A DNA stretch of 64,000 nt from Methylobacteriaceae bacterium (GCA_016793505.1 JAEULW010000160.1:4756-68755); one strand, 5' to 3'; positions 9,872-27,751 are shown, counted from the first letter of the stretch. Notes: generated from the sequence alone by a model not told the origin. A program made the numbers and translations.

Positions 9872-10582
9872 ATGGACGCAGCTGCGATGCGCGCTGTTCC
9901 GGCAACGCAGGAGGATGTCTGGACGATCAGACACTCGCCGCTGTTTGGTCGCCTGCCGGAAGCGACGTTCCAAAGGTTGTTCGAGGGGCAGCCGGTGCAT
10001 TTGCTCGGCAAGGATGCGCGCCTGTTCGAGTGGGGCCGACCTGCCAGCACATGCTTCGTGCTGCTTCAGGGCCTCGTCAAGCTGTATCGCGCGTCGGAGT
10101 CTGGCGAGCGCGCGGTGCTCTCCATCTGTGGGCCCGGGCGCGCCCTGATGCTGGCCGAGGGATTGACCGGCAAGCCCTATTCGGCGAGCGCCGAGACCGT
10201 CAGCCCGACGCGCCTGCTGATGCTCGATGTGACCGAGTTGCGCGACAGGATGCAGGCGGATGTGCGGCTGTCGATGGCGCTTCTGGCGGCGGCCGCGGCC
10301 GACCTGAGGCAGCTCGTGGCGCATGTCGAGGAGCTGAAGGCGATGACCGGTCCGGCGCGCCTGGCCGCTATGATCCTCAATCTTTCCGAAGCGCGGGCGG
10401 GCGCGATGCAGGTGACGTTGCCCTACGAAAAGCAGCTCATCGCGGGCCGGCTCGGTATGACCCCCGAGAGCTTCTCGCGCGCCATGCGGCAGTTGAAGGA
10501 ACATGGCGTGCGCGTCAGTCGCGACAGGCTGGTCATCACCGACATCGGCCGGTTGCGCGGCCTTCTCGAGTCGTCAGGCTAG
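9872..10582 (+). CDS. Crp/Fnr-family transcriptional regulator, paralogue 1 (NnrR/Dnr-like, no N-terminal Cys cluster)
   Basis: cNMP-binding-like beta-roll followed by the C-terminal HTH IAGRLGMTPESFSRAMRQL (E--SR recognition helix). There is no FNR-type CX2CX5C motif. Confidence 0.85.
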   Translation: MDAAAMRAVPATQEDVWTIRHSPLFGRLPEATFQRLFEGQPVHLLGKDARLFEWGRPASTCFVLLQGLVKLYRASESGERAVLSICGPGRALMLAEGLTGKPYSASAETVSPTRLLMLDVTELRDRMQADVRLSMALLAAAAADLRQLVAHVEELKAMTGPARLAAMILNLSEARAGAMQVTLPYEKQLIAGRLGMTPESFSRAMRQLKEHGVRVSRDRLVITDIGRLRGLLESSG

Positions 10583-10613: not shown

Positions 10614-11348
10614 TCAGCTCCTTGCGCCGCGGCGGGACGGCCGAACGAAGGCAGACAGACGGGCGACATCGGAAATGGCGACATGATCGCGTACGACGTC
10701 GACGCCCAGCTTGCGCAGCGTCGCCAGCGCACGCGACAGACTCTCCGGCGTCATGCCGAGGCGGCCGGCCAGCAGCGCCTTTTCATAGGGCAGGACCACC
10801 GTTGCGTTGCCGGCGCCGGGGGGCGTCTGCCGAAGCAGGAAGTCGGCAAGGCGCCGTGGGGTCGAGAGGAGCTTGAGGCTTGCGATTTCAGCAAAAAGCC
10901 TGTCCGTATGCTGGACGACCGAGCCGAGCAGCGTCGCCGCAAGACCGGTGTCGTTTTCGATCGCTTCGTTGAAACGCCCGGCGTCGATCTTGAGGAGTCG
11001 CAGATGGCTGGCCGCTTCGGCGCTGGCGGGATAGGCGCCGCCGAGAAAGAACACAGCCTCGGCGAAGGTCTCGCCGCGCGTGAAAACGCCGACGATCGCC
11101 TCGTCGCCGGACGCGGTGCTGCGGAACAGTTTGACCCAGCCGTCGAGCACGAGGAAAAAGCCGTCGGCGCGATCGCCCTGGGAAAAGATCAGCTGGTGCG
11201 GCGCATAGCTCGCCGGATGCTGATGGCCGCACAGCCGCGCGAGAATGTCGCGATGCACCTCGCTGAACATGGCCGAGGCGCACAAAGTCCGCCAGTCGGC
11301 GTCGTCCAGCGCGACGCCCGCTTGATGAATGTCACGTGCTTCCCTCAC
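10614..11348 (-). CDS. Crp/Fnr-family transcriptional regulator, paralogue 2 (NnrR/Dnr-like)
   Basis: HTH LAGRLGMTPESLSRALATL. Convergent with paralogue 1, separated by a 31-bp gap. The start could also be the internal Met 26 codons downstream of the annotated start codon at 11348 (at about 11270). Confidence 0.85.
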   Translation of the reverse strand: MREARDIHQAGVALDDADWRTLCASAMFSEVHRDILARLCGHQHPASYAPHQLIFSQGDRADGFFLVLDGWVKLFRSTASGDEAIVGVFTRGETFAEAVFFLGGAYPASAEAASHLRLLKIDAGRFNEAIENDTGLAATLLGSVVQHTDRLFAEIASLKLLSTPRRLADFLLRQTPPGAGNATVVLPYEKALLAGRLGMTPESLSRALATLRKLGVDVVRDHVAISDVARLSAFVRPSRRGARS

Positions 11349-11840
11349 GTCACCTCCCGGCGGGTTGCGACGAACAGCATTGGCGCCGCGGCGGCCGCGT
11401 CAAGCCGACGGACATATTTTGGCAGGTTGGCCGGCGGACTGTCGCTGGCCATCTGCGCGGTCGCGGCCGCCTCGAGGGCCGACGCCCAACGCGACGGCGT
11501 CGCGGACGCGCTCGCCGGCCACCAGGCGGAAATGCGACAGCTGGCCGGCGAAGACCCTTACAGAAGAGCGTTTTTCTTCGACGCCGTGGAGGTCGAGAGC
11601 CCCAATCCCGGCGTGCCTTGCGACCATATCGCCAGCCGGCGACCGGAAGCGGTCGCCGGCCAGGGCCGGGTCGTTCTGCTCGAGTCGGCGTCCGATCCGG
11701 CTCGCCGGCTGAGATTCTGGGCGGCGCCTGACTTCGATCAAGGCGCAGATGCTGTCGCTGCGGCGATCGCCTTCGCCCAGTCCGCCAAGTTCGGTCCGCA
11801 TCGTGTCGTCGGCATGCGTCAGTTCGCCTGGTGCCGGTGA
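11325..11840 (+). CDS. Hypothetical small exported protein with a twin-arginine-like signal (SRRTYFG + hydrophobic core + ADA)
   Basis: This is the 3' part of track ORF 10503..11840. Third-position GC is high from about 11340 to the TGA at 11838-11840. ATG 11325 is the only canonical start upstream of the RR motif, and TTG 11427 would remove the signal. No family recognised. Confidence 0.45.
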   Translation: MNVTCFPHVTSRRVATNSIGAAAAASSRRTYFGRLAGGLSLAICAVAAASRADAQRDGVADALAGHQAEMRQLAGEDPYRRAFFFDAVEVESPNPGVPCDHIASRRPEAVAGQGRVVLLESASDPARRLRFWAAPDFDQGADAVAAAIAFAQSAKFGPHRVVGMRQFAWCR

Positions 11841-11854
11841 ATTCGGCGAGGAAC

Positions 11855-11868
11855 TTATCTCTTCTCAA
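11855..11868. promoter_or_regulatory. Candidate FNR/NnrR-type box upstream of nirS (TTATC-TCTT-CTCAA)
   Basis: 14-bp dyad centred about 69.5 bp upstream of the nirS ATG. The right half CTCAA is shared with the boxes at 13669 and 24070. The left half deviates from TTGAT. Confidence 0.35.
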
Positions 11869-11930
11869 TTACGTGCGGCCGCTCCTCGCTAGCCTCCCAC
11901 GCCGTATTCATCCGTAAGGAGATCGGCGTC

Positions 11931-13580
11931 ATGACCGGCAAGGCGCATGGGGCAAGCATACTGGGATTGGCGTTCGGCGCATTTCTGGCGAGCACGGCGC
12001 TGACGCCCGTGTCGGCGCAGACGGCGGCGCCCGGCCCGAGCCTTTCGAAGGAGGCCATGGAGGCCTCCGGCAAGATTTACTTCCAGCGCTGCGCCGGCTG
12101 CCATGGCGTGTTGCGCAAGGGCGCCACCGGCAAGAATCTCGAGCCGCAGAACAGCGCCAAGCTCGGACAGGACCGCCTCGAGAAGATCATCGCACTCGGC
12201 ACCGAAGGCGGGATGGTCAATTTCGACGACATCCTGACCAAGCAGGAGATCAAGGACGTCGCGACGTATATCCAGCTTCCTCCGCAGGTCCCGCCGGAAT
12301 GGGGCATGAAGGACATGCTGGCGTCGTGGAAGAACATCGTGCCGGTCGACAAGCGACCGACGAAGCAGATGAACGCCTACAATCTGAAGAACGTCTTCTC
12401 GGTGACGCTGCGCGACGCCGGCGAGGTGGCGCTGATCGACGGCGACACCAAGCAGATCCTCAGCCGCGTGAAGACCGGCTACGCCGTGCATATCTCGCGC
12501 CTGTCGGCCTCAGGCCGCTATATCTACGTGATCGGCCGCGACGGCCTGCTGTCGCTGATCGACTTGTGGATGGAGAAGCCGGCCGTCGTCGCAGAAATGA
12601 AGTCCGGGCTCGACGCGCGCTCGGTCGACGTCTCGAAGTTCAAGGGCTTCGAGGACAAGTATGCGATCGCCGGGTCCTACTGGCCGCCGCAATACGTGAT
12701 CATGGAAGGCGACACGCTGAAGCCTCTCAAGGTCGTCTCGACCCGCGGCGTGACGGTGGACGGCGAGTATCATCCCGAGCCGCGCGTCGCCTCGATCGTC
12801 GCTTCGGTCACCAAGCCCGAATGGGTGGTGAACATCAAGGAGACCGGGCTGATCCAGCTGGTCGACTATTCCGACATCAAGAACCTGAAGACGACCACGA
12901 TCGAGTCGGCCAAGTTCCTGCACGACGGCGGCTGGGACGCCTCGAAGCGCTACTTCCTGGTCGCGGCGAACGCCTCGAACAAGGTGGCGGTCGTGGACAC
13001 CAAGGAAGGCAAGCTCGCCGCGCTCGTCGATACGGCCAAGATCCCGCATCCCGGCCGCGGCGCGAACTTCACCCATCCGAAGTTCGGACCGGTATGGGCG
13101 ACAGGCCATCTCGGCGCGGACGTGATCTCGCTGATCGGCACGGATCCCGAGAAGAACAAGGACAGCGCCTGGAAGGTCGTGCAGGAACTCAAGACGCACG
13201 GGGCCGGCAATCTGTTCGTCAAGACGCATCCGAAGTCCAAGAATCTGTGGGCCGACGCGCCGCAGAATCCGGAGAAGGACGTCGCCGAATCGGTCGCCGT
13301 CTACGATCTCAACGACCTCACCAAGAAGCCGGAAATCATCAACATCGCCAAGCTGTCGGGCCTGCCGGAATCCAAGGCGATCAAGCGCGCCGTGCATCCG
13401 GAATATGACGAGACGGGCACGGAGGTGTGGATCTCGCTGTGGGCCGGCAAGACCGAACCGTCGGCGATCGTCGTCATGGACGATGCGACGCGCAAGGTGA
13501 AGAAGGTGATCACCGATCCGAACATGATCACCCCGACCGGCAAGTTCAACGTCAACAACACCCAGCACGACGTCTACTGA
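11931..13580 (+). CDS. nirS: Cytochrome cd1 nitrite reductase
   Basis: Signal peptide, haem c site CAGCH in KIYFQRCAGCHGVLRKGATGKNL, then a d1 beta-propeller domain. 549 aa. Confidence 0.95.
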   Translation: MTGKAHGASILGLAFGAFLASTALTPVSAQTAAPGPSLSKEAMEASGKIYFQRCAGCHGVLRKGATGKNLEPQNSAKLGQDRLEKIIALGTEGGMVNFDDILTKQEIKDVATYIQLPPQVPPEWGMKDMLASWKNIVPVDKRPTKQMNAYNLKNVFSVTLRDAGEVALIDGDTKQILSRVKTGYAVHISRLSASGRYIYVIGRDGLLSLIDLWMEKPAVVAEMKSGLDARSVDVSKFKGFEDKYAIAGSYWPPQYVIMEGDTLKPLKVVSTRGVTVDGEYHPEPRVASIVASVTKPEWVVNIKETGLIQLVDYSDIKNLKTTTIESAKFLHDGGWDASKRYFLVAANASNKVAVVDTKEGKLAALVDTAKIPHPGRGANFTHPKFGPVWATGHLGADVISLIGTDPEKNKDSAWKVVQELKTHGAGNLFVKTHPKSKNLWADAPQNPEKDVAESVAVYDLNDLTKKPEIINIAKLSGLPESKAIKRAVHPEYDETGTEVWISLWAGKTEPSAIVVMDDATRKVKKVITDPNMITPTGKFNVNNTQHDVY

Positions 13581-13605
13581 CCGCGCTGCATGCGGCGGAC
13601 GGACA

Positions 13606-13636
13606 GGGGCGGCCTCAGGGCCGCCCCTTGTTTTTT
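13606..13636 (+). terminator. Rho-independent terminator immediately after nirS
   Basis: GGGGCGGCC-TCAG-GGCCGCCCC (perfect 9-bp GC stem) followed by TTGTTTTTT, 26 nt after the nirS stop. Confidence 0.8.
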
Positions 13637-13668
13637 GCTGCGACCCGCCGGCCGCGCCGAACGCGGTC

Positions 13669-13682
13669 TTACCAACTCTCAA
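13669..13682. promoter_or_regulatory. Candidate FNR/NnrR-type box upstream of the nirT-fusion gene (TTACC-AACT-CTCAA)
   Basis: 14-bp dyad downstream of the nirS terminator, centred about 63.5 bp upstream of ATG 13739. Same right half-site as the nirS and regulator-3 boxes. Confidence 0.35.
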
Positions 13683-13738
13683 GGTCAGCAGCGCCCATGC
13701 CCCTAGAGTCGGGCGAACACGTCTCCATGGAGTGGCTG

Positions 13739-15580
13739 ATGTCCGACGCTTCGCCCGCCCGCCCCGAGGGTCGGATCGCCCGCCTTTGGGCGACGTTGAA
13801 GCGGCCGACAGCGCGGTACTCCCTCGCCACGCTGCTCGTCGGCGGCTTCGCCGCGGGCGTGGTCTTCTGGGGCGGCTTCAACACGGCGATGGAAGCCACC
13901 AACACCATGACATTCTGCATCTCGTGTCACGAGATGCGTGAAAACGTCTACAAGGAGTATGACAAGACAATCCACCACTCGAACCGCACCGGCGTGCAGG
14001 CGACATGCTCCGACTGCCACGTGCCGAAGGAGTGGACGCACAAGCTCGTGCGCAAGATCCAGGCCTCGAACGAGGTGTTCCACTGGCTGCTCGGCTCGGT
14101 CGACACGCCCGAGAAGTTCGACGCCAAGCGCCTGACGCTCGCCAAGAATGTCTGGAGTTCGATGAAGCGCACGGACAGCCGTGAGTGCCGCAACTGTCAC
14201 ACGCTCCAATCGATGAACCCGGAATTCCAGAGGCCGCGCGCACGCCAGCAGCATCTTTCAGCGATGGAGACGGGCGGAACCTGCATCGACTGCCACAAAG
14301 GCATCGCCCACAAGAGCGTGCGCGCCAAGCTCACCGACGCGGAGCTCGAAGAGCTCGAGAAGCCGTTGCAGCAGTATGTTCGTGAGATTCCGCAGAGCTA
14401 CCGCGATGGTCTGGTTCGCGCCGCGCAGCGCGAGAAGGACGCGGAGGCCAAGCGTCAGTCCGAGGTGGACGACAAGGTCAAGTCCGCCGTCGCGGCTGCA
14501 GAGGCTAGGGCCGCCGCCGCCATCGCCGCCGCCCAGAAGGCCGCAGCCGATGCGCAGGCGCAGACCGGCGCGGCTGCGCCGGCGACGGCCGCCGCCACGG
14601 CGCCGGCGGCGCCTGCCGCCGCCGCGGCCGCAGGGCCGGGCAAGATCGACTGGGCTGCGGCGCCGGCCAAGACGATCGGCTTCTTCTATCCCGGCCAGAC
14701 GTCCTACGAGTGGGTGCAGAACGGCCGCGATCACGGCGGCGCGCGCGCCTTCCTGCGCGGCGGCGACCGCTGCGTCACCTGCCATGACAAAGAAGTGCGC
14801 GAGATGGGCGCCAAGCTGGTCTCTGGCGAGAAGGCGGAAGCCACGCCGATCAAGGGCAAGCGCGGCTCGGTCGACGTGCAGGTGCAAGTCGCACATGACA
14901 AGGAGAAGATATACTTCCGCTTCCAGTTCCCCAAAGCGCCGCACACGCCGGTTGACGGCTACGCCGACGGCAAGATGGACCCGGCCAATGAGACCAAGGT
15001 CTCGGTGATGGTCTCGGGGCCCTCGATCGAGCGCGCAGAACTCGCAGGCTGCTGGGTGACCTGCCATCACGACGCGCGCAACATGCCCGATACGCCCAAG
15101 GACGACGCGTTGAAGGCCTTCGCCGCCGACGCCGGACTCGACCTGTCGAACGGCGTGACGAAATACGTGCCGGAATCGCGCAGCGCCATCGAGTTGCGCG
15201 AGGCGCCGCGCGGCGGCTGGAACAAGCTGAAGTCGAAGGACGAACTCGCCAAGCTGGTCGCCGAAGGCGGCGCCATGGAGCTCATGCGCTATCGCTCCGG
15301 CGGCGACCCGGAGCACGGATTGATCGCCGCCCAACGCGTCATGACAGGGCTTTCGCCGATCGAGGCGTCGGGTGGCCTGGCTGGCGATACCTGGACCGTG
15401 GTCATCGCCCGTGCGCTGAAAGGCGCCGCTCCCGGCGAGATCGCGCTGGAGCCGGGCAAGAAATATGTCGTGTCCTTCGCCCTGCACGAGGATTTCACGG
15501 CCTCGCGCTTCCATCACGTGTCGCTCGCCTACGAGCTGTCCCTCGACGGCGAAGGCGAACTCGTCGCCAAGGCGCAATGA
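13739..15580 (+). CDS. nirT: NapC/NirT-family tetrahaem quinol dehydrogenase fused through an Ala/Pro-rich linker to a second periplasmic cytochrome domain (EB_dh / cytochrome c-552-like by eye)
   Basis: ATG 13739 has GGAG 6 nt upstream; alternative in-frame ATGs lie at 13697 and 13727. One N-terminal TM helix, four CXXCH (CISCH, CSDCH, CRNCH, CIDCH), a low-complexity linker, then about 370 aa containing CVTCH and CWVTCHH. Confidence 0.8.
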   Translation: MSDASPARPEGRIARLWATLKRPTARYSLATLLVGGFAAGVVFWGGFNTAMEATNTMTFCISCHEMRENVYKEYDKTIHHSNRTGVQATCSDCHVPKEWTHKLVRKIQASNEVFHWLLGSVDTPEKFDAKRLTLAKNVWSSMKRTDSRECRNCHTLQSMNPEFQRPRARQQHLSAMETGGTCIDCHKGIAHKSVRAKLTDAELEELEKPLQQYVREIPQSYRDGLVRAAQREKDAEAKRQSEVDDKVKSAVAAAEARAAAAIAAAQKAAADAQAQTGAAAPATAAATAPAAPAAAAAAGPGKIDWAAAPAKTIGFFYPGQTSYEWVQNGRDHGGARAFLRGGDRCVTCHDKEVREMGAKLVSGEKAEATPIKGKRGSVDVQVQVAHDKEKIYFRFQFPKAPHTPVDGYADGKMDPANETKVSVMVSGPSIERAELAGCWVTCHHDARNMPDTPKDDALKAFAADAGLDLSNGVTKYVPESRSAIELREAPRGGWNKLKSKDELAKLVAEGGAMELMRYRSGGDPEHGLIAAQRVMTGLSPIEASGGLAGDTWTVVIARALKGAAPGEIALEPGKKYVVSFALHEDFTASRFHHVSLAYELSLDGEGELVAKAQ

Positions 15581-15587
15581 GGACGCC

Positions 15588-15995
15588 ATGCGGCTGTTTC
15601 TCGTACTTCTGATGCTAGGCGCCGCTGCTCCGGCGGCGGCGCAGCCGAAAGACGACACGGCCGAGCGCTGCGCCGAGGCGGCCGCGCGTTATCAGGAACT
15701 GTACGGACGGGACCACAGGGCCGAGGGGGTCAAGACAGTCCTCATGTACAAGTATCGCTTCTGCCCGGCCGATGTGACGATCAAGGCGGGCGAGCGGCTG
15801 CGCTACGTCAATGTCGACAAGCGGACCTCGCATTCGGTCTGGCTGAAGGCCGCGGGACAGGCGGAGTCCGAGCGCGTCTTCCATGAAGGCGTCATCGAGG
15901 TCGACACGCGCCTGCCGGCTGGCGAGCATGAGGTGCTGTGCGGTCCACACTGGGAGACCGACAAGATGGTCGGCAAGATCACGGTGGAGAAGTAG
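15588..15995 (+). CDS. Secreted cupredoxin (type-1 blue copper protein)
   Basis: Signal peptide MRLFLVLLMLGAAAPAAAQ. Candidate ligand set is His in KRTSHSVW plus C-G-P-H-W-E-T-D-K-M (Cys-X2-His-X5-Met). It lies 8 nt after the upstream stop. Confidence 0.7.
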   Translation: MRLFLVLLMLGAAAPAAAQPKDDTAERCAEAAARYQELYGRDHRAEGVKTVLMYKYRFCPADVTIKAGERLRYVNVDKRTSHSVWLKAAGQAESERVFHEGVIEVDTRLPAGEHEVLCGPHWETDKMVGKITVEK

Positions 15996-15996
15996 G

Positions 15997-16812
15997 ATGT
16001 CGAAGGGACATGTGGCGCTGGTCGGCGCCGGCCCGGGCGATCCGGAGTTGCTCACTCTGAAGGCTGTCAAGGCGCTGGCGCAGGCCGAGATCGTCGTGCA
16101 TGACCGACTGGTCTCGGACGCGGTGCTGAAAGTGGCGCCGGATTCGGCGATGCGCATCTCGGTCGGCAAGGAGGCGGGGCGGCATTCCTACAAGCAGGAA
16201 GAGATCAACGGCCTGCTGGTGCATCTCGCCCTGCAGGGCAAGAATATCGTGCGGCTGAAGGGCGGCGATCCCTTCGTCTTCGGTCGCGCCTGCGAGGAGA
16301 TCGAGGCGCTCGAGGCGCACGGGATCTCCTGGTCCGTCGTGCCCGGAATCACTGCGGCGCAGGGCTGCGCCGCCTCGGCGCGCGTGCCGCTGACGCATCG
16401 CGGCCTGGCGCGCTCCTTGCGATTTGTCACGGGCCATTGCCGAGGCGATCAGCCGCTCGAACTCGACTGGAGAGGCCTCGCCGATCCGCAAACCACCGTC
16501 GCCTTCTACATGGGCGCGGCGACGGCCCCGCAATTGTCAGCCCGATTGATCGAAAACGGCCTTCCGCCGGAAACGCCGGCGCTTTGCATAAGTCAAGGCA
16601 CGACGCCGCAGGAACAGCGAGTGTTCACCAGCCTCGACCGTCTGACAGCGGATCTGGACCGGGCGTCTCTGCCGAGCCCCATCCTGATCATCGTCGGCGC
16701 GGCGATGGGATGGCGACCGAACGAACCCTCGGGTGAGCACAGTGACGATGCGCGCCTTGCTCCTGTCGAAGCTGATCGTCGCGATCTGCGCGACAAGCGC
16801 GCTCGCCGCTGA
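15997..16812 (+). CDS. nirE: Uroporphyrinogen-III C-methyltransferase (SUMT) of the haem d1 pathway
   Basis: VALVGAGPGDPELLTLKAV...VRLKGGDPFVFGR... is the classic SUMT pattern. Its 3' tail overlaps nirC by 65 nt. Confidence 0.9.
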   Translation: MSKGHVALVGAGPGDPELLTLKAVKALAQAEIVVHDRLVSDAVLKVAPDSAMRISVGKEAGRHSYKQEEINGLLVHLALQGKNIVRLKGGDPFVFGRACEEIEALEAHGISWSVVPGITAAQGCAASARVPLTHRGLARSLRFVTGHCRGDQPLELDWRGLADPQTTVAFYMGAATAPQLSARLIENGLPPETPALCISQGTTPQEQRVFTSLDRLTADLDRASLPSPILIIVGAAMGWRPNEPSGEHSDDARLAPVEADRRDLRDKRARR

Positions 16813-17059
16813 GCTCGATCGCGAGCGCCTGAAGCATCTGGTCGTCCAGGAATGCGGCTCCTGCCATGGGCTCGTCCTCAAGGGCGGCCTCGGCCGGCCA
16901 TTGACGCAGGACGCGCTGGCGCACTTCCCGCAGGAGACCGTGCGGGACATCATTCTTGACGGGATCCCGGGCACGCCGATGCCGCCCTGGCGACCGCTGC
17001 TTTCCGAAAACGAAGCGGCGGCGATCGCCGTCATGCTGAAAAACGGAGACATCCGATGA
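16748..17059 (+). CDS. nirC: Monohaem cytochrome c55X
   Basis: Signal peptide MRALLLSKLIVAICATSALAA and a single CGSCH. About 100 aa, positioned between nirE and nirF. GTG 16733 is an alternative start. Confidence 0.8.
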   Translation: MRALLLSKLIVAICATSALAAELDRERLKHLVVQECGSCHGLVLKGGLGRPLTQDALAHFPQETVRDIILDGIPGTPMPPWRPLLSENEAAAIAVMLKNGDIR

Positions 17060-18246
17060 TCGACCGCCGCAGCGTTCTGGCGATTGCGCCGCTGGCGCTC
17101 GCGCCCCGGCTGGCCTTCGCGCAGGCGCCAGCGCCGCAGATGCGCGGCACCGGCGATCTCGGCGTCATCATCGAGCGCGCGACAGGCAGCGTCCTGATCG
17201 TGGAGACGACCGACCGGACCGTGCTGACGCGCATCGAAGGACTCGGCGATCTGTCCCACGCCTCGGTCTGTTTCTCGCGCGACGAGCGGTTCGCCTTCGT
17301 CTTTGGTCGCGACGGCGGTCTGTCGAGGATCGACCTTCTCGGCGGGCGCATCGCCAAACGGATCGTCCAGGGCGGCAACGCTATCGGCGGCGCCGTCTCC
17401 GACGACGGCCGTCTCGTCGCGGTGTCGAATTATGAGCCCGGCGGCGTTCGGGTGTTCGACGCCGAGACGCTGGCGCTGGTCGCCGACGTGCCCGCGACTT
17501 CACGCTCGGCGGCGCGATCCAAGACCGTCGGCCTCGTCGACATTCCTGGACGCGCTTTCGTCTACGCCCTCTACGACGCCGGCGAAATCTGGCGGCTTGA
17601 AATTCCGGTGTCCGAGGCGCCGCGGCTGACCCGGCTCGAGAACGTCGGCAAGCTGCCCTATGACGGCAATGTGACGAGCGACGGGCGGCACTACTTCGCC
17701 GGCCTGTTCGGCGAGGACGGCGTCGTGCATGTCGATCTGTGGAAGGAGCCGCTCAAGGCCGAGCGCGTGCTCGACGGTTACGGCCGCGGCGAAGCGCCGT
17801 TGCCCGTCTACAAGATGCCGCACTTCGAGGGCTGGGCGGCGACGCAGAACATGCTTTTCCTGCCTGCGGTCGGGCGCGACGAACTGCTGGTCTTCGATCT
17901 TTCCACGCTGAAAGAACTTGGACGCGTGCAGACATATGGTCAGCCTGTCTTCGCCGTCGCACGACCGGACGGCCGGCACGTCTGGGTCAACTACGCCTAT
18001 CCGAAGAACAACGTCGTCGAGATCGTCGATTCGCAGTCTCTTGCGATCGTGAAGCGACTGGAGCCAGGCCCAGCGGTCCTGCACCTCGAATTCGCGCCGC
18101 GTGGACACGAAGTCTGGGTTTCCTCGCGCGATGCGGACGCCGTCATCGTCTACGACACCAGAAGCTTTCAGGAGAAGGCGCGGATCAAGGCGTCGAAACC
18201 CTCGGGAATCTTCTTCACCGCGCGTGCGCATGTGATCGGAAAGTAG
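17056..18246 (+). CDS. nirF: Haem d1 biosynthesis protein NirF (cd1-like beta-propeller, no haem c domain)
   Basis: ATGA overlap with nirC. Exported (MIDRRSVLAIAPLALAPRLAFA). Similar to the NirS d1 domain along its whole length. Confidence 0.9.
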   Translation: MIDRRSVLAIAPLALAPRLAFAQAPAPQMRGTGDLGVIIERATGSVLIVETTDRTVLTRIEGLGDLSHASVCFSRDERFAFVFGRDGGLSRIDLLGGRIAKRIVQGGNAIGGAVSDDGRLVAVSNYEPGGVRVFDAETLALVADVPATSRSAARSKTVGLVDIPGRAFVYALYDAGEIWRLEIPVSEAPRLTRLENVGKLPYDGNVTSDGRHYFAGLFGEDGVVHVDLWKEPLKAERVLDGYGRGEAPLPVYKMPHFEGWAATQNMLFLPAVGRDELLVFDLSTLKELGRVQTYGQPVFAVARPDGRHVWVNYAYPKNNVVEIVDSQSLAIVKRLEPGPAVLHLEFAPRGHEVWVSSRDADAVIVYDTRSFQEKARIKASKPSGIFFTARAHVIGK

Positions 18247-18247
18247 C

Positions 18248-19258
18248 GTGTCGAACGCCCTGGCCATCAACCAGTTCGATGAAGCGACGCGCCTGCTCGT
18301 CGATCGCTATCAACGCGATTTTCCGCTGTCGCCGCAACCGTTCGCGCTGATCGGCGATCAACTCGGCCTGCGCGAGGCGGATGTCATTGAGCGACTCGCG
18401 CGCTTGCGGGAGATCGGCGCCGTCAGCCGCGTCGGCGCTGTCGTCCGGCCGAATGCGGCCGGGGCATCCACCCTCGCGGCGATCGCGGCGCCGCCCGCCG
18501 ACATCGAACGCATTGCTGGGATCGTCAACTCGCAGCGCGGCGTCAATCACAACTATGAGCGCGAGCACGAATTCAATCTCTGGTTTGTCGTGACAGGCCG
18601 GACCGGCGACGACGTTCATTCCGCGATCGACGAGATCGAGCGCGAAACCGGACTCGATGTGCTCGATCTGCCGCTCGAGCAATCCTATCACATCGACCTT
18701 GGCTTTCCCTTGTTCGACGCGCCATCGCGTAACGCACCATGCATCGAGTCGCGCGAGGTCGCGGGCGAGGCCGATGTGCGACTGCTGGCGGCGATCGAGA
18801 GCGGGCTGCCGTTGACGCCGCGGCCCTACGCTGTGATCGCCGGCGCGATCGGAGAAGGCGAAGATGCGGTCATCGACCGACTGGCGTCAATGCAGGCGCG
18901 GGGAATCGTCAAGCGGTTCGGGGTCGTCGTCAGGCATCGCGCCTTCGGCTATGACGCGAACGCCATGGCGGTCTGGGACGTTCCCGATGCAGCCGTCGAC
19001 CGCGTGGCCGCGCGGTTCGTCGAGGCCCCGCAGGTCACCCTCTGCTATCGACGCCCACGGCGGCCGCCCCGCTGGCGCTACAATCTGTTCACGATGGTTC
19101 ACGGCGTTGCGCGCGACAACGTCCTGGACGTGATCGGAGGACTGACCGAACGCGCCCGCGGCCAATGCGATGCGAGCGCTGTGCTGTTTTCGCGCCGATG
19201 CTTCAAGCAGCGCGGCGCCACCTTCGTCAGACGCGAGGCGCAACATGCCGACGCTTGA
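18248..19258 (+). CDS. nirDL: Sirohaem decarboxylase NirD-NirL fusion
   Basis: GTG start 1 nt after the nirF stop. Two tandem Lrp/AsnC-like modules, each carrying the HNYEREH.FNLWF motif. Confidence 0.9.
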   Translation: MSNALAINQFDEATRLLVDRYQRDFPLSPQPFALIGDQLGLREADVIERLARLREIGAVSRVGAVVRPNAAGASTLAAIAAPPADIERIAGIVNSQRGVNHNYEREHEFNLWFVVTGRTGDDVHSAIDEIERETGLDVLDLPLEQSYHIDLGFPLFDAPSRNAPCIESREVAGEADVRLLAAIESGLPLTPRPYAVIAGAIGEGEDAVIDRLASMQARGIVKRFGVVVRHRAFGYDANAMAVWDVPDAAVDRVAARFVEAPQVTLCYRRPRRPPRWRYNLFTMVHGVARDNVLDVIGGLTERARGQCDASAVLFSRRCFKQRGATFVRREAQHADA

Positions 19259-19697
19259 TCCCATCGATCGCGCCATCATCAACGGATTGCAGGGCGGCTT
19301 TCCGATCAGCGAACGGCCATTTGCAGAAGCAGGGGAAGCTCTGGGACTGACGGAGAGCGCGCTGATCGAGCGGCTTCGAAAACTTGAGCAGGCGGGCGCC
19401 ATGTCACGATTCGGGCCGCTCTGGAATTCAGAAGGTCTCGGCGGCGCCGTCTGCCTGGCGGCCATGGCTGTTCCTGCCGAAAGGTTCGAATCGATCGCAG
19501 CCATCGTGAACGCGCATCCGCAGGTGGCGCACAATTACGAGCGCGAGCACCATCTCAACATGTGGTTCGTCATCTCGACTCTCGAGCCTGAAGGAATTGT
19601 CTCGACCGCCGCCGCAATCGAGGCCGAAACGGGTCTCGAGGTGTGGCTCATGCCGAAAGAGGAGGAGTATTTCGTCGAGTTCCGGGTGGCCGTATGA
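19245..19697 (+). CDS. nirG: Sirohaem decarboxylase subunit NirG
   Basis: MPTLDPIDRAIINGLQGGFPISERPF...HPQVAHNYEREHHLNMWF. Overlaps nirDL by 14 nt. Confidence 0.9.
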   Translation: MPTLDPIDRAIINGLQGGFPISERPFAEAGEALGLTESALIERLRKLEQAGAMSRFGPLWNSEGLGGAVCLAAMAVPAERFESIAAIVNAHPQVAHNYEREHHLNMWFVISTLEPEGIVSTAAAIEAETGLEVWLMPKEEEYFVEFRVAV

Positions 19698-20188
19698 GAC
19701 TGTCGTCAACCGATCGCAACCTTCTTGCCGCAACGTCCGGCGGACTTCCGCTCGACCCCGATCCTTATGGCGACGTCGCGCGACGCGTCGGTTGCGATCG
19801 GCAGACGGTTCTCGCGCGGTTCGAGGCGCTGCTGCGGTCTGGCGCCATCCGTCGCATCGGGCTCATACCGAACCACTACGCGCTTGGCGTCGTCGCCAAT
19901 GGCATGAGCGTATGGGACATCGCGGACGAGGCCATCGACCGGATCGGTGCGATGGTTGGCGAACTTCCGTTCGTGTCGCATTGCTACAGGCGACCACGGC
20001 ACATGCCATTGTGGCCGTACAACCTGTTCGCGATGGCGCATGGCTGCACGCGCGCGGAGGTCCTGGCGAAAGTCGAGGAGATCTCCAGACTGATCGGGCC
20101 GGCGTCGCGGGGCCACGAAGTGCTGTTCTCGAAGCGTATCCTGAAGAAGTCCGGGTTGCAGATGCCGGGCGGCCGAACCGCCGTCTGA
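19694..20188 (+). CDS. nirH: Sirohaem decarboxylase subunit NirH
   Basis: ATGA overlap with nirG. Lrp/AsnC-like, with VSHCYRRPRHMPLWPYNLFAM. Confidence 0.9.
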   Translation: MRLSSTDRNLLAATSGGLPLDPDPYGDVARRVGCDRQTVLARFEALLRSGAIRRIGLIPNHYALGVVANGMSVWDIADEAIDRIGAMVGELPFVSHCYRRPRHMPLWPYNLFAMAHGCTRAEVLAKVEEISRLIGPASRGHEVLFSKRILKKSGLQMPGGRTAV

Positions 20189-20201
20189 AAGGGGATGGAA
20201 C

Positions 20202-21431
20202 ATGTTTCGCCTTTCACATTACCTGCGTGCGGTGATGACGCCGGGGCATAGCGCGCCTGCGCACGGGCCGAAGGGTAGTGCGCCGCCGCTGCGGATGACC
20301 GGGCCAGTCGTCATCTGGAACCTCATCAGGCGCTGCAATCTGACCTGCACGCATTGCTACTCGATTTCTGGCGATGTCGACTTTCCAGGCGAACTTTCCA
20401 CGCAGGACGTCTTCTGCGTCCTGGATGATCTGCGTGAGGCGGGCGTTCCCGTCCTCATTCTGTCAGGCGGCGAGCCGCTTCTGCGACGCGACATTTTCGA
20501 TATTGCGAAGCGTGCGCGCGAGCTCGGATTCTTTTTGTGCCTGTCGACGAACGGCACGCTGATCGACGAGAAGGTGGCGACTCGCATCGCTGAGGCCGAT
20601 TTCGATTATGTCGGGATTTCGCTGGACGGACTGGCGCAGACGCATGACGAGGTGCGGCGCAGCGCGGGCGCGTTCGACCGATCGGTGGCGGCGTTGCGGC
20701 TGCTGCGCGACCGGGGCGTGAAGGTCGGCGTCCGCTTCACGATGACGCAGAAGAACGAGCGTCACCTCGAGCCGCTCATTGATCTTTGCGAGTCGGAACG
20801 GTTTCCGAAATTCTATCTTTCGCACCTTGTCTATGCCGGACGCGGCAACAAGAATCGAGGTCAGGATTCAGCGTGGGAATCGACGCGCAAGGCGATGGAC
20901 ATTCTCATCGCACGAGCAGCGTCGGCGATCGAAGACGGCCGCGATCTGGAGATCGTCACCGGCAACAATGACGCCGATGCGGTCTATCTGCTGCACTGGA
21001 CGCAGGCGCGTTACCCCGATCAGGCGATGCGACTGAAGCGCATGCTCGAACGCTGGGGTGGAAACGCGTCAGGCGTCAATGTCGCCAACATCGACAATAT
21101 CGGCGACGTCCATCCCGATACGATGTGGTGGCACCATCGGCTCGGCAATGTCAAATCGCGGTCGTTCGGGGAAATCTGGAGCGACAGGTCGGATCCCGTT
21201 TTCGCCGGGCTGAAGCAGAGGCCGCGCGCTGTCAAAGGCCGATGCGGCGCGTGCGCGCATCTCGACATTTGCGGCGGCAACACGCGCATCAGGGCGCTGA
21301 AGATAACGGGAGATCCGTGGGCCGAGGATCCGGGCTGCTATCTGACGGACGCCGAGATCGGCGTCGAGAGCTCCGGCTCCAGACTTTCCGTCACACCTTT
21401 CCGCGGGAGCCGTCATGAAGCGGTTGTCTGA
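20202..21431 (+). CDS. nirJ: Radical SAM haem d1 biosynthesis enzyme NirJ
   Basis: CNLTCTHCY radical-SAM cluster motif plus a C-terminal Cys-rich auxiliary cluster region (CGACAHLDICGG). Confidence 0.9.
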   Translation: MFRLSHYLRAVMTPGHSAPAHGPKGSAPPLRMTGPVVIWNLIRRCNLTCTHCYSISGDVDFPGELSTQDVFCVLDDLREAGVPVLILSGGEPLLRRDIFDIAKRARELGFFLCLSTNGTLIDEKVATRIAEADFDYVGISLDGLAQTHDEVRRSAGAFDRSVAALRLLRDRGVKVGVRFTMTQKNERHLEPLIDLCESERFPKFYLSHLVYAGRGNKNRGQDSAWESTRKAMDILIARAASAIEDGRDLEIVTGNNDADAVYLLHWTQARYPDQAMRLKRMLERWGGNASGVNVANIDNIGDVHPDTMWWHHRLGNVKSRSFGEIWSDRSDPVFAGLKQRPRAVKGRCGACAHLDICGGNTRIRALKITGDPWAEDPGCYLTDAEIGVESSGSRLSVTPFRGSRHEAVV

Positions 21432-22899
21432 CGCCATCGCAATGGCGCTGTTGAGCCTGACTCTGTCGGCGTCCGCTGCATCTGCGGATGCGTCTCAACT
21501 TTATGAGACGCATTGCGTCGCCTGTCACGGCGAACAGCGCCTGGGCGGAATCGGCCCCGCGCTGCTGCCGGAAAACATGGGGCGACTGCGCGGCGCGGCG
21601 GTTCAGAAGGTGATTGCAGACGGCCGCGATGCGACGCAGATGCCGGCCTTTGGTCAGGTTCTGAGCAAAGCGGAAATCGAGTCGATCGTCGCCTACATCG
21701 CCAAGCCGCTCGCTCAACCGCCGGTGTGGGGCATGGCGGAGATCGCGGCGAGCCGTAGGATCGAGACAATTCCGGCGCGGGAGCAGAAGCCGGTCTTTTC
21801 CGCCGATCCGCTGAATCTGTTCGTCGTGGTGGAAGTCGGCGATCATCATGCGACGATTCTGGACGGTGACGCGCTGGAGCCGCTGGCGCGGTTTCCAACA
21901 CGATTTGCGTTGCATGGCGGACCGAAGTTTTCCGCTGACGGACGCTTTGTGTATTTCATGTCCCGCGACGGATGGGTCGAGAAGTACGATATCTGGTCGC
22001 TGCAGAAGGTTGGCGAGGTGCGCGCGGGGATCAATTCGCGCAACATTGCGCTTTCGCCCGACGGCGAAACGATCGCTGTGGCGAATTACCTGCCGAAGTC
22101 GCTGGTTCTGTTGTCCGCCAGCGATCTTGCGCCAATACGCACGTTCGATGCGCAGGACGCGAACGGAGCGTCGTCGCGCGTTTCGGCCGTCTATCAGGCG
22201 CGGCCGCGCAACAGCTTCGTCGTCGCCTTGAAGGATGTGGCCGAGATGTGGGAGATCTCAACGCAGAAGGGCGACTTCAAGCTGAGACGGATCAAGACGG
22301 ATGAACCGCTGGACGATTTTTTCTTCGATCCGGGCTATGCCCATGTCCTGGGGTCGGCTCGGGAGGGGGCGGTTTCGAAAGTGTATGCGCTGGATACCGG
22401 ACGAGAAGTAGCCGCCTTGTCATTGCCGGGATTGCCGCATCTGGGTTCGGGAATCTCATTCGTATACGACGGCCGCCGGGTGATGGCGACGCCGCACATT
22501 CGATCCGGGCTGGTGTCGATCATCGCCATGGACGACTGGTCGCCCGTCAAGACGGTTCCGACGCCCGGGCCAGGTTTCTTCATGCGCAGTCATGAGAACT
22601 CGCGATTCGCCTGGACCGATTCGATGATGTCCAAAGCCAAGGACACGATGTCGATCCTCGACAAGACAAGTCTCGAGATCGTGCGGTCGATCACGCCGAG
22701 CGCCGGAAAGACCGCAGCGCATGTCGAGTTCGATCGATATGGCAAGCGCGTGCTTGTCTCCGTCTGGGAGGATCCCGGCGAGCTCGTCGTGTACGACGCA
22801 GAGACTTTCGTCGAGATCAAGCGACTGGCGATGCGCAAGCCGTCGGGCAAGTACAATGTCTTCAACAAGATCAATCTGTCGGAAGGGACCAGCCATTGA
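21415..22899 (+). CDS. nirN: Dihydro-haem d1 dehydrogenase NirN (cd1-like cytochrome)
   Basis: Signal peptide, CVACH haem c site, then a d1-type propeller. Overlaps nirJ by 17 nt. Confidence 0.9.
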   Translation: MKRLSDAIAMALLSLTLSASAASADASQLYETHCVACHGEQRLGGIGPALLPENMGRLRGAAVQKVIADGRDATQMPAFGQVLSKAEIESIVAYIAKPLAQPPVWGMAEIAASRRIETIPAREQKPVFSADPLNLFVVVEVGDHHATILDGDALEPLARFPTRFALHGGPKFSADGRFVYFMSRDGWVEKYDIWSLQKVGEVRAGINSRNIALSPDGETIAVANYLPKSLVLLSASDLAPIRTFDAQDANGASSRVSAVYQARPRNSFVVALKDVAEMWEISTQKGDFKLRRIKTDEPLDDFFFDPGYAHVLGSAREGAVSKVYALDTGREVAALSLPGLPHLGSGISFVYDGRRVMATPHIRSGLVSIIAMDDWSPVKTVPTPGPGFFMRSHENSRFAWTDSMMSKAKDTMSILDKTSLEIVRSITPSAGKTAAHVEFDRYGKRVLVSVWEDPGELVVYDAETFVEIKRLAMRKPSGKYNVFNKINLSEGTSH

Positions 22900-24083: not shown

Positions 24084-24151
24084 GGCTCTAGCCGGCGTGC
24101 TCGCCGAAGATGGCCAAGCATCGACATGCTGTGGCCTCAAGGAGGCGCCGG

Positions 24152-24859
24152 ATGGCCGCTCCGATCGACTCCTCAGAGTACAAATCGTTGAAATCGACGG
24201 CGATGTTCCGGGCGTTGTCACCGCGAATCGCCGAGAAGCTGCTGGCGGACTGCGTCACCGAGCTGCATCCGGCGTCGAGTCTCCTGTTCCGGCAGGATGA
24301 GCCGGCGCACAGCTTCTTTCTGATGCTCGACGGCTGGGCCAAAGTCGTGCGACAGGCCCCGAACGGGGTCGCGACCGTCATCGGCGTCTTCTCGCGCGGA
24401 CAGACGCTGGCCGAGGCCGTGGCGATCGCTGGCGGTTTCTATCCGGCGTCCGCCGAAACCGTGACCCGCGCGCGCGTCGTCAGGATCGACGCAGAGCGCA
24501 TTCGCTCCACCATTCACAGCGATCCGGACATCGCGCTCGGCATGATCGCGTCTGCCGCGCAGCATCTGCTTTCGTTGATGCGGCAGATCGAAAACCTCAA
24601 GGCGCTGAAGGGCCCGGAACGCGTTGCGGAATTCCTTCTTTCCTTGACCGATGTCGACGGCGGCCCTGCCTGTATCGCGCTGCCCTTTGACAAGACCCTG
24701 ATCGCCGCCCGGCTCGGCATGCAGCCCGAGTCGCTTTCCCGCGCCTTCCTGCGCTTGCGGGAGGCGGGCGTCCAGGTCGACGGCGCAGACGTTCGCATCG
24801 CCGATGTCGGCCAGCTTGCCTCGTATGTGCGGACCCTCGAAACGGCGGTCGCGCACTGA
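24152..24859 (+). CDS. Crp/Fnr-family transcriptional regulator, paralogue 3 (NnrR/Dnr-like)
   Basis: ATG 24152 has GGAGG 6 nt upstream; track ORF start 24110 lacks an RBS. HTH IAARLGMQPESLSRAFLRL. No FNR Cys cluster. Confidence 0.85.
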   Translation: MAAPIDSSEYKSLKSTAMFRALSPRIAEKLLADCVTELHPASSLLFRQDEPAHSFFLMLDGWAKVVRQAPNGVATVIGVFSRGQTLAEAVAIAGGFYPASAETVTRARVVRIDAERIRSTIHSDPDIALGMIASAAQHLLSLMRQIENLKALKGPERVAEFLLSLTDVDGGPACIALPFDKTLIAARLGMQPESLSRAFLRLREAGVQVDGADVRIADVGQLASYVRTLETAVAH

Positions 24860-25728: not shown

Positions 25729-27660
25729 TCACCCGGCGACGTGCCGGTAGATGTCGGGCAAGGCCTCGAGCAGCTTTTCGGCGTCCGGCGTCATCGCGAA
25801 TCCGTTCTGACCAAAAATATGTGGAATGTAGTCGCGCGCGCGCGCGTCGACCGTGATCGCAAACACCGCCTGTCCGATGCGACGCGCCTCCTGCACGGCG
25901 CGGCGCGTGTCCTCGACGCCATGCCGGCCTTCATAGTGATCGAGATCATTCGGCTTGCCGTCCGTGATCACGAGCAGCAGGCGACGCTGGGCGTCGCGTC
26001 GGGCAAGATAGGCCGAAACATGGCGGATCGCGGCGCCCATGCGCGTATAGAAGCGGGGCGAGAGGCCCATGATCCGGCGGCGGATCGCGGTGTCATTGGC
26101 TTCGCCGAAGTCCTTCACGCGCTCGATCATGACGCGGTCGCGGCGCAGCGAGGAGAATGCGTGAACGGACACGGCGTCGCCGCACGCGTCGACCCCGCCG
26201 ACGAGCGCAACCAGCGCCTCGCGCGCGATCTCGATCACCGGGCGCCCGGCGACGGAACTTTCGGTGGAGCGCGAGACGTCGATGAGGACGCTGACGCAGA
26301 GATCGCGTTCGTCGTCACGGATCGCCTGGTAGAGGCGGTCGCTCGCCTGACCCGAAGCTCCGAGATCGCAATGCGCGCGCACGACCTCGTCGAGGTCGAG
26401 GTCGAACCCGTCGACTTGCCGCCTGACGATGCGGCGGCGCGGCCGCAGCGCCTCGAACTGCCGCTTGACGCGTTCAACACGGCGGCGCGTCCGCGGTCTG
26501 TCGAACGCGTCGGCGTCCTTCTCTTCTGCAAGGCGCTCCTGCACGCAGACGTGATCGGGCAGATAACTTCCGCTCTTCCAGTCCCATTCGGGATAGGTCG
26601 TCTCCCCGATCAGCCGCTCGCGGTCGACGTCGCGCGGCGAGAGATCGAGATGGAACTTCAACTTCGTCTTCGATGAACGCGAGTTTCTGGCCAGAGAAAT
26701 CTCGTCGAGGTCTTCTGCGGCCTTCCTGGCGTTGTCCTCGTCATCGTCCTCGATGGCGCGATTGATGTTGAGGAACTCGACCCAGGACATGATCGATTCG
26801 AAGCGATGCAGAATCAGGCTGTCCTTTCGGTTGGCCTGATCGGCGTCATGGCGCTTTGCGCGCAGGGTTTTTTCCGACCCCTCGTTCGACGGAGCGCCGG
26901 GCGCGGCCGGATCATCGTCGGCCTGGCCGCGGTCCGCCGGACGTTCGGGGGCCAACAGCGGCCACATGGCGACGGGACGAAACGTCTTGTAGTCGTCCGG
27001 CGTCGCCAGGTCGGCAGGATCGCCGTCGCCGAGGATGGCGGCGTGCATGCGGTTGGCCTCGAGCGGCGCGTCGGCGAGCAGCAACCGGATCGCCTGCTCG
27101 AGTTCCGCTTCGACCGGCGGCAGACGCGGCGTCGGCCGCGATGCGAGCAAAGCGGCGGCGAGTTCGGCGCGAACCGCGCGCAGGCCAGGCATCGCCCGGA
27201 GCAGCGACTGCTCGGCGGCGTGAAGCGCTCGCAGCATCGCGACGTCGCTGGCCAGCGGCGCTTCGGGTGCGATGAACGGCGTCTCGACGAACGCCGCGAG
27301 CGCGGCAATCCAGAGGTAGAGGCGGCGGTTGAGCGCTACTTCGGGAAACAGCGCAACAGCGGCGGGCAAGGCGAGCGTCTGGCCGTCATAGCTGGCGCGC
27401 GTCACATGATCCACGTCATGGCCGAGGCGGCGCCGGCCGGTGACGCGGCTGCGGCTGGCCGTCGCCGCCGAAGGCAGGATCTCGGCGCCGGTTGCGCCGC
27501 CCGCGGCGCGATAGAAAAGGCCGACCGATGTCGACACCGAGGGGTAGTCGATGGCGGCTTCCGGATAGCGCGGCTCGGCGCCCCAGTCGCGCACGACGTC
27601 ATGCCATGCCGAGCCAACGGTCTCCTCCGGCTCCCAGAAGTGCGGAATGCGTATCGCCAC
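25729..27660 (-). CDS. norD: NorD, von Willebrand factor A-domain NOR activation protein
   Basis: GTG start with GAGGAA upstream. C-terminal VWA domain (VLIDVSRST...LLLVITDGKPND...AITVD). Confidence 0.9.
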   Translation of the reverse strand: MAIRIPHFWEPEETVGSAWHDVVRDWGAEPRYPEAAIDYPSVSTSVGLFYRAAGGATGAEILPSAATASRSRVTGRRRLGHDVDHVTRASYDGQTLALPAAVALFPEVALNRRLYLWIAALAAFVETPFIAPEAPLASDVAMLRALHAAEQSLLRAMPGLRAVRAELAAALLASRPTPRLPPVEAELEQAIRLLLADAPLEANRMHAAILGDGDPADLATPDDYKTFRPVAMWPLLAPERPADRGQADDDPAAPGAPSNEGSEKTLRAKRHDADQANRKDSLILHRFESIMSWVEFLNINRAIEDDDEDNARKAAEDLDEISLARNSRSSKTKLKFHLDLSPRDVDRERLIGETTYPEWDWKSGSYLPDHVCVQERLAEEKDADAFDRPRTRRRVERVKRQFEALRPRRRIVRRQVDGFDLDLDEVVRAHCDLGASGQASDRLYQAIRDDERDLCVSVLIDVSRSTESSVAGRPVIEIAREALVALVGGVDACGDAVSVHAFSSLRRDRVMIERVKDFGEANDTAIRRRIMGLSPRFYTRMGAAIRHVSAYLARRDAQRRLLLVITDGKPNDLDHYEGRHGVEDTRRAVQEARRIGQAVFAITVDARARDYIPHIFGQNGFAMTPDAEKLLEALPDIYRHVAG

Positions 27661-27751
27661 GCCCGTTTCCTCGGCCTTTCCGTCGAAGCGGGAGGCAGGC
27701 TCTTGCGCCCTTGCCGCCCGCCGCAGTGAAGTCGCCCGACCGCGGCGCCGC

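Follow-up and report, generated by a model that had tools for sequence, protein, structure and literature searches.

Gene content of the locus

In a 64,000-nucleotide stretch of a Methylobacteriaceae metagenome-assembled genome (MAG; GCA_016793505.1, JAEULW010000160.1:4756-68755; hereafter the window), an open reading frame (ORF) of 613 amino acids, here termed nirTB (13739..15580, plus strand), joins NirT and NirB in a single polypeptide with six predicted c-type haems, as judged from the ORF list, Pfam and homologues. It is followed by a gene for a secreted type-1 cupredoxin of 135 amino acids (15588..15995, +), which takes the position held by nirM in Pseudomonas stutzeri. The two genes stand between nirS and nirE. 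The former (11931..13580, +) encodes cytochrome cd1 nitrite reductase, the presumed electron recipient, and is recognised by PF02239 (Cytochrom_D1, E 2e-150) and an N-terminal cytochrome c domain. The latter (15997..16812, +; PF00590) opens a series of haem d1 synthesis and maturation genes seen in the ORF list (nirE, nirC, nirF, nirDL, nirG, nirH, nirJ and nirN; 15997..22899, +), whose order from nirE to nirN is matched in related loci (tblastn) and in annotated records.

The nirTB gene starts with an ATG at 13739, with a GGAG six nucleotides upstream, and is separated from the nirS stop codon by 158 nucleotides. The distance to the cupredoxin ORF is much shorter: the first-pass annotation of this DNA had the pair eight nucleotides apart, and while their adjacency holds, the gap counted from the nirTB stop is 7 nucleotides. 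The Shine-Dalgarno sequence of the cupredoxin gene (GAGGA) overlaps the nirTB TGA, and the two genes are probably translationally coupled.

The NirT half of the fusion and the linker

The NapC/NirT tetrahaem domain (residues 23-194; 13805..14320, +) is matched by PF03264 with E 8.8e-74 over profile positions 2-172 of 174. It includes a membrane anchor helix at residues 27-47 (13817..13879, +; YSLATLLVGGFAAGVVFWGGF), which is the top Kyte-Doolittle window (1.8 over 19 residues), and four CXXCH motifs: CISCH (60-64), CSDCH (90-94), CRNCH (150-154) and CIDCH (182-186). Both the helix and the four motifs are near-invariant among homologues. The NCBIfam model TIGR02161 (napC_nirT) scores 274.9 bits, which is under its curated cut-off of 310.6, so that by the NCBIfam rule this half is a divergent or fused member of the family rather than a canonical NapC/NirT; the NCBIfam scan of the fusion returned no full-length model match. 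In the PDB search the sole solved relative of the fusion by sequence was the quinol dehydrogenase NrfH (2j7a_C, E 3e-5). NapC/NirT proteins oxidise quinol at the periplasmic face of the membrane (references cited in PMC3884062), and a quinol dehydrogenase function is predicted for the NirT half as well.

The linker that follows (residues 195-300; 14321..14638, +) begins with a charged helical stretch and passes into an Ala/Pro/Gln-rich low-complexity segment. Alanine accounts for 39 of its 106 residues, and residues 250-300 hold 33 Ala out of 51, along with 4 Pro and 3 Gln. Among homologues the linker differs in both length and sequence, and its reading frame is always open. The transmembrane helix, the four CXXCH in the NapC/NirT arrangement and the linker, all read by the first-pass annotation from the sequence, are present as it described them.

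An overall resemblance exists to the pentahaem cytochromes TorC and DorC, in which a NapC/NirT tetrahaem domain is likewise fused to an additional haem domain at the C-terminus, serving to dock the terminal reductase. In TorC, however, this additional domain is of a monohaem, class-I-like type and not of the EB_dh fold described below. A TorC-like identity of the protein was considered and rejected, as the respective model (TIGR02162) aligns to residues 15-213 only, with 256 bits, far short of its 478-bit cut-off.

The C-terminal half is a NirB-type cytochrome

The remaining domain (residues 301-613; 14639..15577, +) contains two haem-c motifs, CVTCH (residues 345-349; 14771-14785) and the atypical CWVTCH (residues 438-443; 15050-15067); together with those of the NirT half they would bring the haem count of NirTB to six. 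Hidden Markov model searches of the fusion and of the cupredoxin matched PF03264, PF09459 (EB_dh) and PF00127. The PF09459 match (residues 351-595, E 5e-30) takes in the tail VSFALHEDFTASRFHHVSL, which had been likened by eye to EB_dh; the possibility, raised at the same time, that this part of the protein might lack any match to a haem-binding domain is thereby dismissed. Structure prediction agrees with the profile: the AlphaFold2 (AF2) model of residues 301-613, built with 46 homologues as input, has an EB_dh-type fold with a predicted local distance difference test score (pLDDT) of 80, and its best Foldseek matches are the ethylbenzene dehydrogenase gamma subunit (2ivf_C, E 1.9e-8) and NxrC (7b04_C). 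A sequence profile of 25 relatives, a diverse set of fused and stand-alone proteins 28-47% identical to the window domain, also matched 2ivf_C in the PDB (E 1e-7).

In these 25 relatives C345, C348, H349, C438, C442, H443 and H592 are invariant, and H332, M449 and H583 are conserved in at least 90% of them; this conservation makes H592, H583, H332 and M449 candidates for axial haem ligands. EbdC, NxrC and the gamma subunits of type II dimethyl sulfoxide (DMSO) reductases share the fold and the Pfam family with the window domain, but they have a single haem b liganded by Met and Lys, whereas two haem-c motifs are found here. We take residues 108 and 201 to be the haem-b ligands of EbdC (Kloer et al. 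2006); the profile alignment pairs them with Leu and Val of the window domain, and the invariant His592 lies two residues away from the counterpart of EbdC residue 201. We infer that the EB_dh haem pocket may have been kept and be occupied by a covalently bound haem c. An assignment of the domain as a haem-b gamma subunit of a molybdenum enzyme was rejected, the Met/Lys ligand positions being not conserved and TIGR03477 giving 19.4 bits against a cut-off of 169.85; in the window there are no molybdenum-enzyme genes adjoining nirTB.

The identity of the domain is provided by known cytochromes. The combination of CXXCH with the atypical CWXXCH is conserved in PcrO and in P. stutzeri NirB (PMC3884062). 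In P. stutzeri RCH2, Psest_0817, located between NirS (Psest_0815) and NirF (Psest_0821), is annotated as 'Ethylbenzene dehydrogenase' (PMC5554334), and this is the position where nirB is expected in the RCH2 nir cluster. Database homologues of the window protein, both fused and stand-alone, bear the names 'cytochrome C552' and 'cytochrome c-552 precursor'. By these published statements, the RCH2 annotation and the homologues (which are also the grounds for its likeness to P. stutzeri NirB), the C-terminal domain is a dihaem "cytochrome c-552" of the NirB/PcrO/NapO type, and the ORF as a whole therefore represents nirT and nirB of an nirSTBM cluster fused in one gene. The first-pass annotation was right in seeing here a second cytochrome domain, EB_dh-like with two haem-c motifs, but not in setting it apart from the separate cytochromes of P. 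stutzeri, as it is NirB. Stand-alone relatives have N-terminal signal-like sequences. The NirB domain of the fusion has no signal peptide of its own and, being joined to NirT in one ORF, is tethered to the membrane.

Reality and distribution of the fused form

A protein search returned an identical 613-residue entry (P0001, a Methylobacteriaceae MAG) and 2651 matches at E <= 1e-5, not all of which are fusions, since relatives consisting of NapC/NirT only match the N-terminal domain as well. Among the best 120 of the 2651 matches, a class of ~590-630 residues is 66-79% identical to the window protein over the full length, and a class of ~940 residues, represented in Sedimenticola, Chromatiales, Thiodiazotropha symbionts and Magnetovirga, is 50-56% identical. 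In proteins of the longer class, NirT is joined to a tandem pair of NirB domains, both of which have CXXCH and CWXXCH (P0007, P0111, P0020), and eight haems are predicted for these gammaproteobacterial fusions.

A genome scan with one genome per species yielded 46 loci, nearly all of them in MAGs of Hyphomicrobiales and Rhodospirillales, plus Rhodoplanes isolates. The fusion also turned up in a plasmid collection, on complete replicons from cultured Azospirillum brasilense Sp7, three Ruegeria strains and Aliiroseovarius, whose records give it as one 'NapC/NirT family cytochrome c' coding sequence (CDS); this collection contained fused forms only and no stand-alone NirB. An exhaustive search with the NirB domain by itself gave 449 clusters at 50% identity, including many stand-alone proteins of ~320 residues with signal-like N-termini.

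In principle, an ORF of this length could have arisen when an assembly error or a frameshift merged what are really separate nirT and nirB genes: such split genes exist in P. stutzeri, split NapC-like and EB_dh genes occur in other operons, and the window sequence comes from a MAG. Nevertheless, both halves lie in one frame in 48 independent loci besides the window, among them the single CDSs carried by cultured strains on complete plasmids; the linker, for all its sequence variation, is always open, and the signal peptide carried by the stand-alone proteins is missing from the fused domain. With an identical protein on record in addition, an artefact is practically out of the question, and the fusion is regarded as real.

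The first-pass annotation knew of no description of such a fusion. One has in fact been mentioned: a 2026 paper cites a fused NirTB of Halomonas sp. 2A (Li et al. 2018, cited in PMC13086519). Like the window gene, it is an NirT-NirB fusion located downstream of nirS; that citing text, on the other hand, does not mention a cupredoxin partner. The gammaproteobacterial fusions seen in our searches have two NirB domains, and the window fusion has one.

The cupredoxin

The product of the gene downstream of nirTB has a signal-peptide-like N-terminus and the putative copper ligands H82, C118, H121 and M127, arranged as C-X2-H-X5-M (C-G-P-H-x5-M). The plastocyanin/azurin family PF00127 is matched with 23.2 bits against a gathering cut-off of 21.2. 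More specific NCBIfam models remain far from their cut-offs (TIGR02656 plastocyanin, 27.8 bits versus 87.85; halocyanin, 17.4 versus 93.8). In the PDB the sequence matched plastocyanins best, and these reached E ~1e-3 at most, with the ligands aligned to the plastocyanin ligand loop. Because of the low plastocyanin and halocyanin scores and the weak PDB matches, the protein is assigned to a distinct subfamily. Its AF2 model (pLDDT 90) retrieved plastocyanins and amicyanins in Foldseek with E ~3e-7 and template modelling scores of 0.68-0.79 on the target. The four ligands and the cysteines Cys28 and Cys59 are invariant in 42 database homologues, and the ligands are also conserved in 40 locus-derived sequences. 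A secreted type-1 cupredoxin with a His...Cys-X2-His-X5-Met ligand set, as initially annotated, is thus corroborated by family, fold and invariant ligands.

The alphaproteobacterial proteins have an extra N-terminal helix with Cys28 (15669-15671), in addition to Cys59 (15762-15764) in a conserved 'FCP' motif of the first strands, and the two cysteines likely form a disulfide. Both are missing from a gammaproteobacterial cupredoxin (locus L051), and the pair is probably part of a lineage-specific, disulfide-stapled extension.

The locus can now be compared with the P. stutzeri nirSTBM cluster as a whole. Shared are the order of nirS, NirT function, NirB function and a small soluble carrier, the PF03264 and EB_dh (CXXCH plus CWXXCH) families, and the presumed supply of electrons to cd1. 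The differences are that nirT and nirB are separate genes in P. stutzeri but one ORF with an Ala-rich linker in the window, and that the soluble carrier is the c-type NirM (cytochrome c551) there and a plastocyanin-like cupredoxin here. No literature linking this cupredoxin to NirT, NirB or nirS was found in the searchable library.

Conservation of the gene neighbourhood

Synteny was assessed by comparing the window Nir proteins with all loci in tblastn. Of the 45 loci whose upstream sequence is long enough, 38 have a cd1 gene immediately ahead of the fusion. The gene triplet was counted in those genome-scan loci where the fusion is intact and both flanks are available (n=38): the strict order nirS, fusion, cupredoxin is found in 30 of them, it is also kept in L010 (1/38), where nirS is frameshifted, and four Rhodoplanes loci (4/38) have neither nirS nor the cupredoxin. 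The first-pass annotation had asked whether the fusion always occurs beside nirS; this is the case at most loci and not in Rhodoplanes.

The triplet is kept where nirE-N are on the opposite strand (L033, L034, L040-L044), and it is found with two classes of NirS, 78-91% and 46-49% identical to that of the window. The same order of nirS, fusion and copper protein is annotated in A. brasilense Sp7 and Ruegeria sp. THAF33, and it holds for the gammaproteobacterial two-NirB form on a 5.2-Mb contig (L051 8001-10868), where the cupredoxin has 117 residues.

Four homologues of the cupredoxin were sampled by its own sequence. All four adjoin a cd1 gene, and three adjoin NirTB. The fourth, from a marine metagenome (L055 2495-8137), is encoded in a series consisting of nirS, a 230-residue cytochrome c, the cupredoxin, a c3-like cytochrome, a 4Fe-4S protein and an NrfD-type membrane subunit. 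By its gene content, this module looks like a different quinol-oxidising front end that replaces NirTB and works with the same copper protein. Its cupredoxin lineage is widespread and marine, the protein being found in 39 blocks of the collection, with 24 carrying contigs examined.

Some loci contain a second cd1-type gene near the triplet (L006 3430-5031, L008 5738-7303, L045 5182-6771, L034 12775-14334, L044 6588-8147 and L049 11031-12608). Where detected by tblastn, it is ~57-59% identical to the window NirS, and in Azospirillum and the gammaproteobacterial locus it directly follows the cupredoxin gene.

The same module with other partners

In a Rhodoplanes serenus locus that lacks nirS and the cupredoxin (L025 4630-12863), the genes ahead of the fusion encode a molybdopterin oxidoreductase alpha subunit, a 4Fe-4S beta subunit, a cytochrome resembling c554 and a NarJ-like chaperone; the fusion in turn precedes MoaA. 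By gene content, this is a pcrABCD-like operon (type II DMSO-reductase family) with a fused PcrQ-PcrO. The Rhodoplanes fusions of L015, L027, L029 and L036 are likewise found without nearby nirS or cupredoxin genes. In two further loci (L047 5364-10375 and L048 4370-9342), a stand-alone NirB-like gene has a NapC/NirT-type gene on one side and, on the other, genes for an MtrA-like multihaem (decahaem) cytochrome and an MtrB/PioB porin. These look like porin-cytochrome operons, of the extracellular electron transfer or iron oxidation type, equipped with the same quinol module. The recurrence in pcrABCD-like and MtrA/MtrB-like operons suggests that the pair of a NapC-type protein and an EB_dh-type dihaem cytochrome is a reusable quinol-linked module.

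The characterised counterparts are the PcrQ/PcrO and NapC/NapO pairs of Azospira suillum PS, in which the carrier after a NapC/NirT-type quinol dehydrogenase is again a dihaem cytochrome resembling EbdC, with CXXCH and CWXXCH. Unlike the window system, these pairs are encoded by split genes, serve molybdenum enzymes (the perchlorate and nitrate reductases) and have no cupredoxin.

Such versatility could mean that NirTB functions as a quinol dehydrogenase hub for the periplasm in general, with the cupredoxin feeding NorCB and NosZ as well as NirS, and with the adjacency to nirS reflecting co-regulation. The different partners of the module in Rhodoplanes and in the MtrA/MtrB-like operons are in line with this idea, as are the ability of NapC/NapO and PcrQ/PcrO to cross-feed each other's reductases (PMC5845722) and the occurrence of norCBQD-like genes ~3-8 kb downstream of the window nir cluster. 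On the other hand, the cupredoxin subfamily occurs beside cd1 genes only, in every context examined, and the triplet stays intact when the remaining nir cluster is inverted. On balance, we consider a hub function of this kind unlikely.

Expression signals and flanking genes

A terminator-like hairpin followed by a T-run is located between nirS and nirTB (13605..13638, +), 25 nucleotides past the nirS stop and ~100 nucleotides ahead of the nirTB start. Identified by consensus match only, it has a stem of 10 bp, 9 of them G-C pairs, and then TGTTTTTTGC. Its presence points to an nirS transcript that is monocistronic and, in addition, to read-through into nirTB. We liken this situation to P. stutzeri, for which nirS, nirT and nirB were reported as a polycistronic mRNA (PMC8954225). 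A sigma-70 promoter scan of 11300-16100 found none. Sites resembling FNR/NNR boxes were detected at 11322 and 11728, near nirS, each with 2 mismatches and in a number barely above chance; none was found ahead of nirTB.

Three genes for regulators of the CRP/FNR family surround the nir cluster (9872-10582, +; 10614-11348, -; 24110-24859, +), the first two being convergent and just upstream of nirS. The nor-like cluster mentioned above occupies 25729-31020 on the minus strand. It includes a norB-like gene for a subunit of the haem-copper oxidase family (28624-29994), a VWA-domain norD-like gene (25729-27660) and a cytochrome c ORF (30022-31020) whose called start probably makes it too long. Given this cluster, the window represents a part of a denitrification island.

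A proposed electron route to NirS

The domain assignments and the conserved neighbourhood lead us to propose, as the probable function of the locus, that the NirTB hexahaem cytochrome and a dedicated plastocyanin-like cupredoxin supply electrons from quinol to NirS. In the proposed scheme, nirTB would be co-transcribed with the cupredoxin gene; the membrane-anchored NirT tetrahaem domain would oxidise quinol at the periplasmic face, and the electrons would move through the four NirT haems and on to the pair of c-haems in the tethered NirB domain. Kept at the membrane by the fusion and mobile on a flexible linker of ~100 residues, NirB could then deliver them to the c-haem domain of NirS, most likely via the cupredoxin acting in the role of NirM (cytochrome c551). 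A route of this kind would bypass the bc1 complex.

A flow from quinol through NirT to NirB is supported by the genetics of the homologous A. suillum pairs. NapC/PcrQ and then NapO/PcrO were established there as sequential, interchangeable and required carriers between the quinone pool and periplasmic reductases, and double mutants in either step showed no nitrate or perchlorate respiration and no anaerobic growth (PMC5845722). The sequence NirT to NirB to NirS has been hypothesised before (PMC8954225), and P. stutzeri ZoBell depends on NirT for reducing nitrite (as cited in PMC13086519). The quinol-to-NirS chain outlined in the first-pass annotation fits both the A. suillum data on split pairs and the synteny in distant lineages; from sequence and gene order we infer its remaining elements, namely the order NirB, cupredoxin, NirS and the independence of bc1.

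Several points weigh against the proposed route. NirB-type cytochromes are described as low-potential (to judge from the title of Devreese et al. 2000, listed in PMC8954225), so that the step from quinol to NirB would be uphill. The strong terminator-like hairpin between nirS and nirTB means that co-expression of the two genes is not guaranteed. The cupredoxin is not obligatory, since three of the 38 loci (L007, L008 and L035) have nirS and the fusion with no cupredoxin detected. Nor is the NirTB module specific for NirS, as the same fusion family serves a molybdenum-enzyme operon in Rhodoplanes. Finally, nirC, encoding a monohaem c-type cytochrome, is retained in the window nir cluster, and bc1-dependent donors are possible elsewhere in the genome.

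The retained nirC and possible bc1-linked donors would also suit a different role, in which NirTB, with or without the cupredoxin, is mainly a reductive activator or maintenance partner that keeps NirS in its active reduced conformation, while the bulk of electrons travels from bc1 via soluble carriers. NapC/NirT-type proteins were reported to activate cd1 catalytically (Zajicek et al. 2004, as cited in PMC13086519), and NirTB has been tied to the nitrate regulation of NirS activity in Stutzerimonas (PMC13086519). However, the NapC/NapO and PcrQ/PcrO pairs of A. suillum carry the whole respiratory flux (PMC5845722), and a six-haem protein with a dedicated copper carrier, conserved across classes, would be an elaborate device for mere activation. 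An activator role therefore seems improbable to us, and electron supply from quinol to NirS through NirTB and the cupredoxin is the function that we favour.

A more general version of this proposal is put forward tentatively, as we lean slightly against it in its full extent. It holds that nirS, nirTB and the cupredoxin form a bc1-independent quinol:nitrite chain in Alpha- and Gammaproteobacteria, in which the blue copper protein, so far unrecognised, is a last carrier dedicated to NirS and the front end is exchangeable, being NirTB in most cases and the NrfD/4Fe-4S/c3-like module in L055. If this were true, a large proportion of environmental nirS denitrifiers would gain less energy from nitrite, and their response to inhibitors and dependence on copper would be unlike those of the Paracoccus and P. 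aeruginosa textbook models.

Significance

In the textbook route to cd1, electrons pass through bc1 and then through soluble c550, c551 or pseudoazurin, and the NirT/NirB route of P. stutzeri has been a poorly characterised side-case since 1991. The individual elements are not new: the NirT and NirB components have been known since 1991, the pair of haem motifs was described in 2013, and the carrier function of the split pairs was shown genetically in 2018. What appears to be undescribed is the conserved cupredoxin in place of NirM, how widely the triplet occurs in Alpha- and Gammaproteobacteria, and the existence of one- and two-NirB forms. As all components come from known families, the observations are useful to specialists rather than startling. 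The fused form with its dedicated cupredoxin is the usual arrangement in many Hyphomicrobiales, Rhodospirillales, Rhodobacterales and sulfur-oxidising Gammaproteobacteria, and its presence in culturable strains (A. brasilense Sp7, Ruegeria spp.) makes the question of a bc1 bypass testable by genetics. The route by which electrons reach cd1 determines how much energy denitrification yields and how readily nitrite accumulates, and this accumulation in turn drives the release of nitric oxide and nitrous oxide; through the cupredoxin, copper may be a requirement even for denitrifiers of the haem (NirS) type.

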